Shown here in pieces: positions 48,586 through 49,971 of a stretch of DNA of 64,000 nucleotides. Under the pieces are notes generated by a model. It saw only the letters and a list, made by a program, of their open reading frames with translations, was not told the origin of the DNA and did not search any database. Source of the stretch: a virus (taxonomy: Duplodnaviria > Caudoviricetes). How positions within the stretch are numbered: the stretch's first letter is position 1; each line of letters opens with the position of its first letter. The position numbers and the translations under genes are program-made. The stretch is from positions 1 to 64,000 of IMG/VR virus record IMGVR_UViG_2731957752_000002; one strand, 5' to 3'.

Positions 48586-49971
48586 GTGGGTAAGCAGTCC
48601 CGTGTCGATACCGTCGCCAACCTCGCAAAACGTCGAGGAATCGTCTACCAATGCGGCGAAATCTATGGCGGCACCAAGTCGGCATGGGACTACGGTCCGC
48701 TCGGCGTCGAGCTGAAGGAGAACATCAAGCGGCAGTGGTGGCGGTCCATGGTCACCGGCCGCGAAGATGTCGTCGGCTTGGACTCGTCGGTGATCCTGCC
48801 GCGCCAGGTGTGGCATGCATCCGGCCACGTCGAGACGTTCTCTGACCCGCTGGTGGAGTCGCTACACACCCACAAGCGATACAGGGCCGATCACCTGCTG
48901 GAGGCGTACGAAGCCAAGCACGGGCACCCGCCGGCCAACGGTCTCGCCGACATCCGTGACCCTGAGACGGGGCAGCCTGGCGCGTGGACGGAGCCGCGGA
49001 ACTTCTCCGGCCTGCTCAAGACCTTCCTCGGTCCGGTGGATGACGAAGAAGGCTTGCACTATCTCCGCCCGGAGACGGCGCAGGGCATCTTCGTCAACTA
49101 CAAGAACGTCGAGACCACCGCGCGCAAGAAGCCGCCGTTCGGCATCGCCCAGATCGGCAAGAGCTTCCGCAACGAGATCACGCCGGGCAACTTCATCTTC
49201 CGCACCCGCGAGTTCGAGCAGATGGAGATGGAGTTCTTCGTCAAGCCGGGCGAGGACGAGCAGTGGCACCAGTACTGGATCGACACCCGCATGGCCTGGT
49301 ACACCGAACTGGGTATCGACCCGGAGAATCTGCGACTGTTCGAGCATCCGAAGGACAAGCTGTCGCATTATTCGACGCGGACTGTGGACATCGAGTACCG
49401 GTTCGGGTTCCAGGGCAGCGAGTGGGGTGAGTTGGAAGGTGTCGCCAACCGCACTGACTTCGACCTGAAGACGCATTCGGAGCACTCGGGTACCGAACTC
49501 AGCTACTTCGACCAGGCCACCAACGAGCGCTACATCCCGTACGTCATCGAGCCCGCGGCCGGTCTGACTCGTTCGCTGATGGCGTTCCTGGTGGACGCGT
49601 ACACGGAGGATGAGGCGCCGAACGCGAAGGGTGTGATGGAGTCGCGGACCGTGCTGCGCCTGGACCACAGGCTTGCGCCGGTGAAGGTGGCGGTGCTGCC
49701 GCTGTCCCGTAACGCTGATCTGACTCCGAAGGCGAAGGATCTCGCGGCCCAGCTGCGGAAGCACTGGAATGTGGAGTTTGATGATGCGGGTGGTGTCGGT
49801 CGTCGTTACCGCCGTCAGGATGAGATCGGTACACCGTTCTGTGTGACGGTCGATTTCGATTCGCTGGACGATCAGGCGGTGACCATCCGGGAGCGGGACT
49901 CGATGGCGCAGGAGCGTGTCGGGTTGGACCAGGTGGAAGCGTATTTGGCGACGCGGCTGCTGGGCTGCTGA
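48586..49971 (+). CDS. glyQS: Glycine--tRNA ligase (alpha2 type, class II)
   Basis: [87 protein letters not shown] before GTG 48586. Confidence 0.97.

Follow-up and report, generated by a model that had tools for sequence, protein, structure and literature searches.

Why should a temperate tailed phage carry a complete glycyl-tRNA synthetase (GlyRS) gene, glyQS, alongside its tRNA genes? Most described genes for virus-encoded aminoacyl-tRNA synthetases (aaRSs) come from giant viruses or from phages larger than 200 kb. The window, by which we mean the whole 64,000-nucleotide stretch of DNA analyzed here, was originally predicted to encode an intact GlyRS of 461 residues within a temperate phage, and this enzyme was interpreted either as a toxin-resistant backup GlyRS or as a producer of the dinucleotide Ap4A acting together with a HIT hydrolase. 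The reading that we favor, and consider very probable on the basis of comparative sequence analysis, is that the gene encodes a working class II, alpha2-type GlyRS, serving as an accessory translation gene in a family of temperate tailed phages, ~90 kb in size, whose host genus is Nocardia-like.

The window corresponds to positions 26005 to 90004 of a 157-kb contig (C17) of genome G000, the host being a mycolic-acid-type, Nocardia-like actinobacterium. A 29-bp direct repeat is found at C17:23841 and C17:114048, with attL located 2.1 kb before the window start and attR 24 kb past the window end. The DNA of relatives matches the left flank exactly up to C17:23869 and the right flank exactly from C17:114048, and in at least five of them (G006, G008, G009, G011, and G015) the left flank runs directly into the right one across one copy of the 29-bp core, the coordinates overlapping by 28 to 29 bases. 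Since the flanks of the relatives end and restart at these very positions, the whole window is prophage and the element measures ~90.2 kb. The glyQS gene (C17:74590-75975) lies more than 38 kb from both ends of this element, which carries a 453-residue tyrosine integrase at its right end and also encodes a tail tube protein, a tape-measure-like open reading frame (ORF) of 1,693 residues, and an amidase/LGFP lysin. Leftward in the window, Pfam searches identified YqaJ, RecT, a DnaQ-like exonuclease, a DnaB-type helicase, and a C5 methylase. The gene is, as originally predicted, located inside a bona fide phage genome, with att sites, integrase, terminase, portal, coat, tail, and lysin genes, while the exact att borders and the empty sites in relatives rule out a host boundary or an assembly chimera, to the extent that contigs allow. 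The same arrangement is seen in a public record labeled Nocardia (NZ_LN868939.1), which was left out of the count, as it might be a duplicate of an analyzed genome. A second tyrosine integrase gene (C17:116890-117555), adjoining a tRNA-Leu(CAA) gene 3 kb past attR and outside the window, probably belongs to another integrated element or remnant.

The gene itself (Table 1) has every appearance of being complete. A longer frame of 477 residues could be read from a TTG codon at 48538; the start at 48586 was preferred because homologues and family model alike begin there. The product scored 666.5 bits against NCBIfam model NF003211 (cutoff, 312), with residues 8 to 454 aligned to model positions 2 to 454 of 454, and 475.5 bits against TIGR00389 (cutoff, 243.3). 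Pfam placed the class II core (PF00587, tRNA-synt_2b) at residues 154 to 334 and the anticodon-binding domain (PF03129, HGTP_anticodon) at residues 367 to 455, bearing out the predicted domain layout. The nearest solved structures are the GlyRS chains 8t5n (E value, 8e-259), 8u2q, and 8sld; the motif 2 stretch has the same sequence as in 8t5n, and the phage enzyme shares family, length, and motifs with these chromosomal alpha2 GlyRSs of Mycobacteriales. It retains 215 of the 217 alignment columns that are invariant across 29 host GlyRSs of the order, the two departures (I404V and T426S) both being conservative and the second of them being common to the window GlyRS and a second phage copy. An outgroup row (L037, from genome G031) was included in this alignment and in the whole-gene tree described below, and no claim depends on it. 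The three phage copies that we found (in G000, G016, and G093) are all open, full-length frames. Between the two most diverged of them, dN/dS is 0.139 at a dS of 0.66, a whole-gene value within the range among host genes (0.03 to 0.26), and by segment it varies from 0.09 to 0.20. Judging from these comparisons, the product appears to be a functional GlyRS. Finally, the G+C content of the phage gene (62.9%) is close to that of the prophage (63.1%) and lower than that of the host glyQS (66.4%), the genome (68.4%), and the contig flanks (69.1%); the difference from the host copy fits a long residence in phage genomes.

Table 1. Features of the window, with positions counted from its first nucleotide
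Feature	Position	Strand	Basis
Interior of ~90.2-kb prophage	1..64000	.	29-bp att repeats, relatives' flanks, integrase, tail/lysis genes, recombination/replication genes
HIT-domain ORF, 15 kb upstream of glyQS	32904..33407		Domain scan
MazG-like (PRA-PH) protein, conserved left border of tRNA/glyQS slot	45692..46324	+	Pfam PF01503; homologues in 13/15 related loci
Phage Dam-type N6-adenine methyltransferase	46596..47108	+	Pfam PF05869, E 1.1e-12
DUF6378 protein, directly 5' of glyQS	47790..48473	+	Pfam PF19905, E 5e-27; PHROGs families
Shine-Dalgarno-like AGGAGA, 6 nt 5' of glyQS GTG	48574..48579	+	Sequence reading
glyQS, alpha2-type glycine--tRNA ligase, full-length 461-codon frame, GTG start	48586..49971	+	NF003211, Pfam, PDB 8t5n, host-invariant columns
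Aberrant tRNA, ARAGORN Ser(aga)	50195..50265	+	Rfam tRNA model, 45.6 bits
tRNA-Met (CAT)	50612..50688	+	ARAGORN; Rfam tRNA model, 58.4 bits
Cutinase-domain protein, right border of slot	51868..52905	+	Pfam PF01083; homologues in 9/15 related loci
HNH endonuclease with NUMOD4 motif	53908..54729	+	Pfam
Small-terminase-like HTH protein (TerS-like)	54801..55409	+	Pfam
Large terminase (TerL)	55406..56716	+	Pfam scan of the terminase pair: Terminase_6N
Portal, minor capsid protein 2, unnamed ORF, P22-type coat	58241..62637	+	Pfam

Pfam, ARAGORN, the att sites, and the integrase together agree with the prediction that glyQS sits next to tRNA genes and between phage genes in a temperate phage. The tRNA slot that glyQS opens is placed between early genes (MazG and DUF6378) and late genes (the cutinase, TerS, and TerL). 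The gene is followed by an aberrant tRNA and by a tRNA-Met gene. The aberrant tRNA lacks a long variable arm, and its anticodon arm, with an oversized loop on a short stem, has 11 positions rather than 13; the cutinase-domain protein further downstream we take to be LysB-like. Upstream, on the MazG side, Pfam detected a TROVE/Ro protein and a metallophosphatase. ARAGORN found three tRNA-like genes in the window, and no tRNA-Gly either there, as predicted, or anywhere else on the 157-kb contig. Scanning the window with Rfam at the gathering threshold gave one tRNA only and no T-box or other leader, and a promoter/terminator scan of positions 47700 to 51000 gave nothing above shuffled sequences. 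Several further observations concern the rest of the window. The TROVE (Ro60-like) gene (625 residues; region 39384-41409) is directly preceded by a 76-nucleotide element that ARAGORN reads as tRNA-Pro(tgg) and that falls under the Rfam tRNA threshold, with a match to the T arm only; possibly, this element is a Y-RNA-like tRNA mimic. Together with a HAD domain of "Swiss Army Knife" RNA-repair proteins (19971-20534, minus strand) and a calcineurin-like phosphoesterase (43602-44414, plus strand), the Ro-like gene suggests an RNA-repair theme in the prophage. Separately, a 168-residue ORF in the early region (10246-10752) matches only the C-terminal end (positions 360 to 412 of 423) of the P22 coat family, and the actual coat gene (61720-62637) aligns with the N-terminal half of that family.

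How widespread the arrangement is was assessed in 267 species-representative genomes of the host genus, 266 of which contain a GlyRS match and 9 of which contain more than one. TerL relatives at 63 to 82% identity are present in 15 other genomes of the genus, giving a family of 16 members (TerL at least 63% identical), 15 of which have a readable slot; in the remaining one (G224), the contig breaks off too soon. Over the 12 kb preceding TerL, the members share a gene order of metallophosphatase, g44538, MazG, sometimes DUF6378, a variable slot, and then the cutinase, followed by two small ORFs, TerS, and TerL. In every member read, the variable slot holds 1 to 14 tRNA genes, the content differing between species (e.g., loci L065 and L076), and glyQS heads it in G000, G016, and G093 only (3 of 15). 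In these related stretches upstream of TerL, the only constant partners of glyQS are the tRNA slot and its conserved flanking genes. Genome-wide, the 13 family members other than these three have a single glyQS. With 12 of the 15 readable members lacking it, the gene is dispensable for this type of phage. The three carriers fall into three separate, well-supported clades of the TerL tree, and a single clade is rejected (p-AU = 2e-44); given this scatter, the history of the gene requires either transfer between phages or repeated loss.

Two other kinds of multiple glyQS matches emerged from the survey. Five genomes (G006, G056, G110, G264, and G281) contain another, chromosomal glyQS paralogue (L040:3969-10724 on contig C5 of G006, and likewise L061 to L064), the neighbors of which, in the G006 type, are two radical-SAM enzymes (one with PqqD), two PhyH dioxygenases, and a TrmO_N-like protein. 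The locus resembles a RiPP-type cluster equipped with a GlyRS paralogue of its own, possibly for self-immunity or for a tRNA-dependent step. Like the phage gene, the paralogue is extra and evolves faster than the housekeeping copy beside it; unlike the phage gene, it is chromosomal, lies in a RiPP-like cluster, and has flanks unrelated to the window. Additionally, the glyQS of G009 is split over three contigs (C126, C127, and C128; L042 to L044) with two alternative 439-bp versions of the part encoding residues 217 to 362; these fragments are probably two copies that the assembler did not separate.

A megablast search of positions 39500 to 64000 against INPHARED gave no match, and the best TerL matches among known phages, at ~53%, are to Streptomyces phages. 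A tblastn search of INPHARED with the GlyRS returned 11 records, none of them from an actinophage; four of the records reach 80% coverage or more and, going by their labels alone, are three unannotated fecal "Bacteriophage sp." fragments and one Staphylococcus phage. The survey of actinophages suggested at the outset was negative for the INPHARED records and positive for the prophages, with the same slot filled in G016 and G093. In IMG/VR, seven pattern matches were obtained and none was confirmed, while PHROGs holds no family for GlyRS. Among metagenomic sequences, the best 80 of 580 GlyRS relatives are at most 81% identical, and none has the window's phage genes or at least two tRNA genes nearby. 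Likewise, the retrieved portions of the literature on actinobacteriophage tRNA synthetases and Nocardia prophage tRNA ligases (including PMC12889140) describe no such gene.

The relationship between the phage gene and the host glyQS, for which a phylogeny had been proposed as a check, turned out to differ along the gene. In the whole-gene DNA tree, each extra copy adjoins the gene of its own host on a long branch of 0.16 to 0.21 (0.17 for the window glyQS versus 0.015 to 0.05 for host genes). A four-sequence comparison of the phage and host copies of G000 and G016, however, yielded 45 informative sites uniting the two phage copies, clustered at alignment columns 1 to 393 and 1024 to 1373, versus 55 sites uniting each phage copy with its own host, clustered at columns 492 to 982; the third possible pattern was seen at 9 sites. 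Split into ends and middle, the phage-phage sites number 42 and 3 and the within-genome sites 18 and 37 (Fisher P = 1.8e-10). Moreover, both phage copies have the same derived base at 21 sites that are invariant in 11 host copies. Trees of the segments agree: in the 5' segment, the G000 and G016 phage copies form a clade (100/99), whereas in the middle segment the window copy falls inside the clade of its own host (99/99) and the G016 copy groups with its own host gene (100/97); the G093 phage copy is identical there to its host copy and is almost wholly host sequence overall. The phage copies also group in the 3' segment, with support values of 93/91 and 81/94 that are suggestive rather than strong. 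Splitting the gene into segments resolves the contradiction between the whole-gene tree and the phage-lineage sites: the ends follow the phage lineage and the middle follows the host. The central catalytic part of the phage copies shows 94 to 100% nucleotide identity to the sequence of the resident host or its clade, and what is specific to the phage enzyme lies in the anticodon-binding domain and in ~130 residues at the N terminus; the 3' part has a dN of 0.09 to 0.15, compared with 0.026 between two host genes. The phage glyQS differs from the chromosomal GlyRS genes of Mycobacteriales in its prophage location, lower G+C content, long branch, and phage-lineage changes at both ends; branch length, phage-lineage sites, dN/dS, and base composition all point to a copy that is distinct from that of the host and maintained by selection.

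This mosaic pattern indicates that the core of the phage gene undergoes recurrent host-to-phage gene conversion, and the simplest reading of the sequences would be that the phage lineage acquired the gene once, in an ancestor, and that its central part was then converted repeatedly during lysogeny. The host copy of G000, on contig C50, is typical of its own clade along its whole length, i.e., no phage-to-host transfer was seen. A 241-nucleotide tract is 100% identical between the window glyQS and the C50 copy; a very recent exchange between the two was considered and rejected, as the phage copy is equally identical to the G052 gene in this tract (compared in two 120-nucleotide windows within it, alignment columns 541 to 720). 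We propose that the phages took glyQS from a bacterium belonging to the host genus and that it has resided in phage genomes for a long time, as its phage-like base composition and the lineage-specific changes at both ends suggest. Purifying selection would maintain it, while the resident host glyQS would repeatedly overwrite its central, most conserved part through homologous recombination in lysogens. The enzyme would charge host tRNA-Gly, adding to or securing the supply of Gly-tRNA together with the phage tRNAs, and in a lysogen it would make the host gene redundant; its aminoacylation activity, its expression, and its benefit to the phage are what we infer from this scheme. Glycine demand was rejected as a reason for carrying the gene, since glycine is not enriched in the prophage ORFs (7.6% versus 8.8% in the host). 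A partner tRNA-Gly was rejected as well: among the 14 related loci, only the slot of G199 has one, in a prophage lacking glyQS. With no tRNA-Gly accompanying the gene, there is no obvious special need for a GlyRS.

While the reading as an accessory translation gene accounts for the phage copy, the state of the host copy opens another possibility, namely, that the chromosomal glyQS has been inactivated by two indels and that the prophage encodes the sole working GlyRS, making the prophage unlosable. The host does keep a glyQS of its own (C50:56978-58348), and the concern that the phage gene might be the only one is answered by this copy in part: it exists, but it is frame-disrupted as assembled. 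One G is missing and one extra base is present 146 nucleotides further on; the ORF stays open, and as a result of these two compensating 1-base indels ~50 codons, including motif 2, are read out of frame. Inside this tract, 4 of 52 residues are identical to the phage protein, compared with 372 of 409 (91%) outside it, and all 27 host-invariant columns from which the C50 copy departs are located within it. The locus is native, with synteny to G257 and G116 over more than 13 kb, neither indel is a change in homopolymer length, and the genome contains no other GlyRS (NF003211 matches on C17 and C50 only; a glyQ-type GlyRS is absent). None of 61 other matched genes, in a ~100-kb related-genome stretch spanning C50 and neighboring contigs, has a split frame, which argues against a generally indel-prone assembly, although compensated frameshifts are invisible to this control. 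(An indel control by DNA alignment to two relatives was discarded as uninformative, with many intergenic indels at 90 to 92% identity.) On the other hand, the sequence is undisrupted at both places in four of four closely related runs (95 to 99% alike, from three studies) and in six of six relatives of the host clade, making the lesion private to this assembly; the indels sit exactly where the two paralogues are identical and could confuse assembly or polishing; and the host copies of the other two lysogens, G016 and G093, are intact. No sequencing run was found to contain the full C50 stretch (best share, 0.66; RNA runs, at most 0.12), and runs X1 to X4 yielded no second contig at least 85% alike, where contigs attest presence only and do not imply absence of the prophage. 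On balance, we lean slightly against the lesion being real in the strain, and we hold the loss of the chromosomal function to the prophage to be a serious, if somewhat doubtful, alternative. It might then amount to addiction via essential-gene replacement, made possible by the ongoing recombination between prophage and host copies, a scenario that we take to be tenable but rather short of probable.

The remaining explanations concern what the phage enzyme is for. The original idea of a toxin-resistant backup GlyRS fared differently in its two halves: a second, backup GlyRS is plausible, given the intact catalytic residues and the signature of purifying selection, whereas toxin resistance found no support in a core that is 94 to 100% host-like. 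In a broader form of the idea, differences from the host enzyme would protect the phage GlyRS from a toxin or abortive-infection effector of the host, or from a natural inhibitor, that blocks GlyRS or the charging of tRNA-Gly. The phage-specific ends of the protein and their raised dN are consistent with this, as are the RNA-related genes of the prophage (TROVE/Ro, the HAD domain of RNA-repair proteins, and the metallophosphatase), and the toxSAS FaRel2 reportedly targets tRNA-Gly. Because the catalytic core is host-like and is apparently replaced by host sequence time and again, however, any such property would have to lie outside it, in the N-terminal ~130 residues or the anticodon-binding domain; invariant residues are unaltered, no toxin or defense gene is linked to glyQS, and the low dN/dS of every segment gives no sign of diversifying selection. 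Escape of this kind is, in our view, unlikely. Second copies of essential aaRS genes on mobile elements are known from plasmid-borne ileS2/mupA, which confer antibiotic resistance. The phage glyQS is likewise an extra copy of an essential aaRS gene on a mobile element; it differs in that no GlyRS inhibitor is implicated and the active-site part is the host's own sequence. Nor does it resemble a resistance or self-immunity paralogue, with its 94 to 100% host-identical center and its phage neighbors. A use outside translation, in which Gly-tRNA-Gly or glycyl-adenylate would feed Mom-type DNA hypermodification or Ap4A signaling with the HIT protein, is very unlikely. It has a precedent in phage Mu, where Mom transfers glycine from Gly-tRNA-Gly to DNA adenine (PMC13219725), a phage process dependent on the product of GlyRS, and the prophage does have a Dam-type methyltransferase and a HIT-domain ORF. 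Still, no Mom-like, GNAT, or Fem domain turned up in Pfam scans of 71 prophage ORFs (all but ~20 small ones) or when glyQS and 9 neighboring ORFs were compared with PHROGs, with the proviso that a very divergent GNAT could escape such scans. The HIT ORF predicted to cooperate in Ap4A metabolism exists, but it lies 15 kb away with no evidence of linkage: the related-prophage stretches end short of its position, and in them glyQS travels with the tRNA slot and its border genes. Hardly credible, finally, is a functionless passenger, i.e., host DNA picked up by accident and decaying. The 12 family members without glyQS and the almost wholly host-derived copy in G093 would fit such a passenger, but three full-length open frames, a dN/dS of 0.14 over a dS of 0.66, a G+C content drifted to the phage level, and the changed bases shared by both phage copies at 21 otherwise invariant sites would not.

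The GlyRS of this prophage, read as an accessory translation enzyme, joins the known virus-encoded aaRSs in an unusual setting. According to Al-Shayeb et al. [quoted passage not shown] The aaRS types of such phages may already include GlyRS. As in those phages and in giant viruses, we find a virus-borne aaRS that is related to the enzyme of the host and stands alongside tRNA genes. The present case differs from that description in involving a single aaRS of a ~90-kb temperate, integrated actinobacterial phage, and in being a mosaic with the host gene, with 91% of residues identical outside the frameshifted tract. It extends virus-encoded aaRSs to a mid-size temperate actinophage family. The glyQS of these phages also provides a clean natural case of concerted evolution, with ends that belong to the phage lineage and a core rewritten by the essential gene of each host. 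If the lesion in the host copy is true, the prophage would have become indispensable by supplying an essential enzyme.
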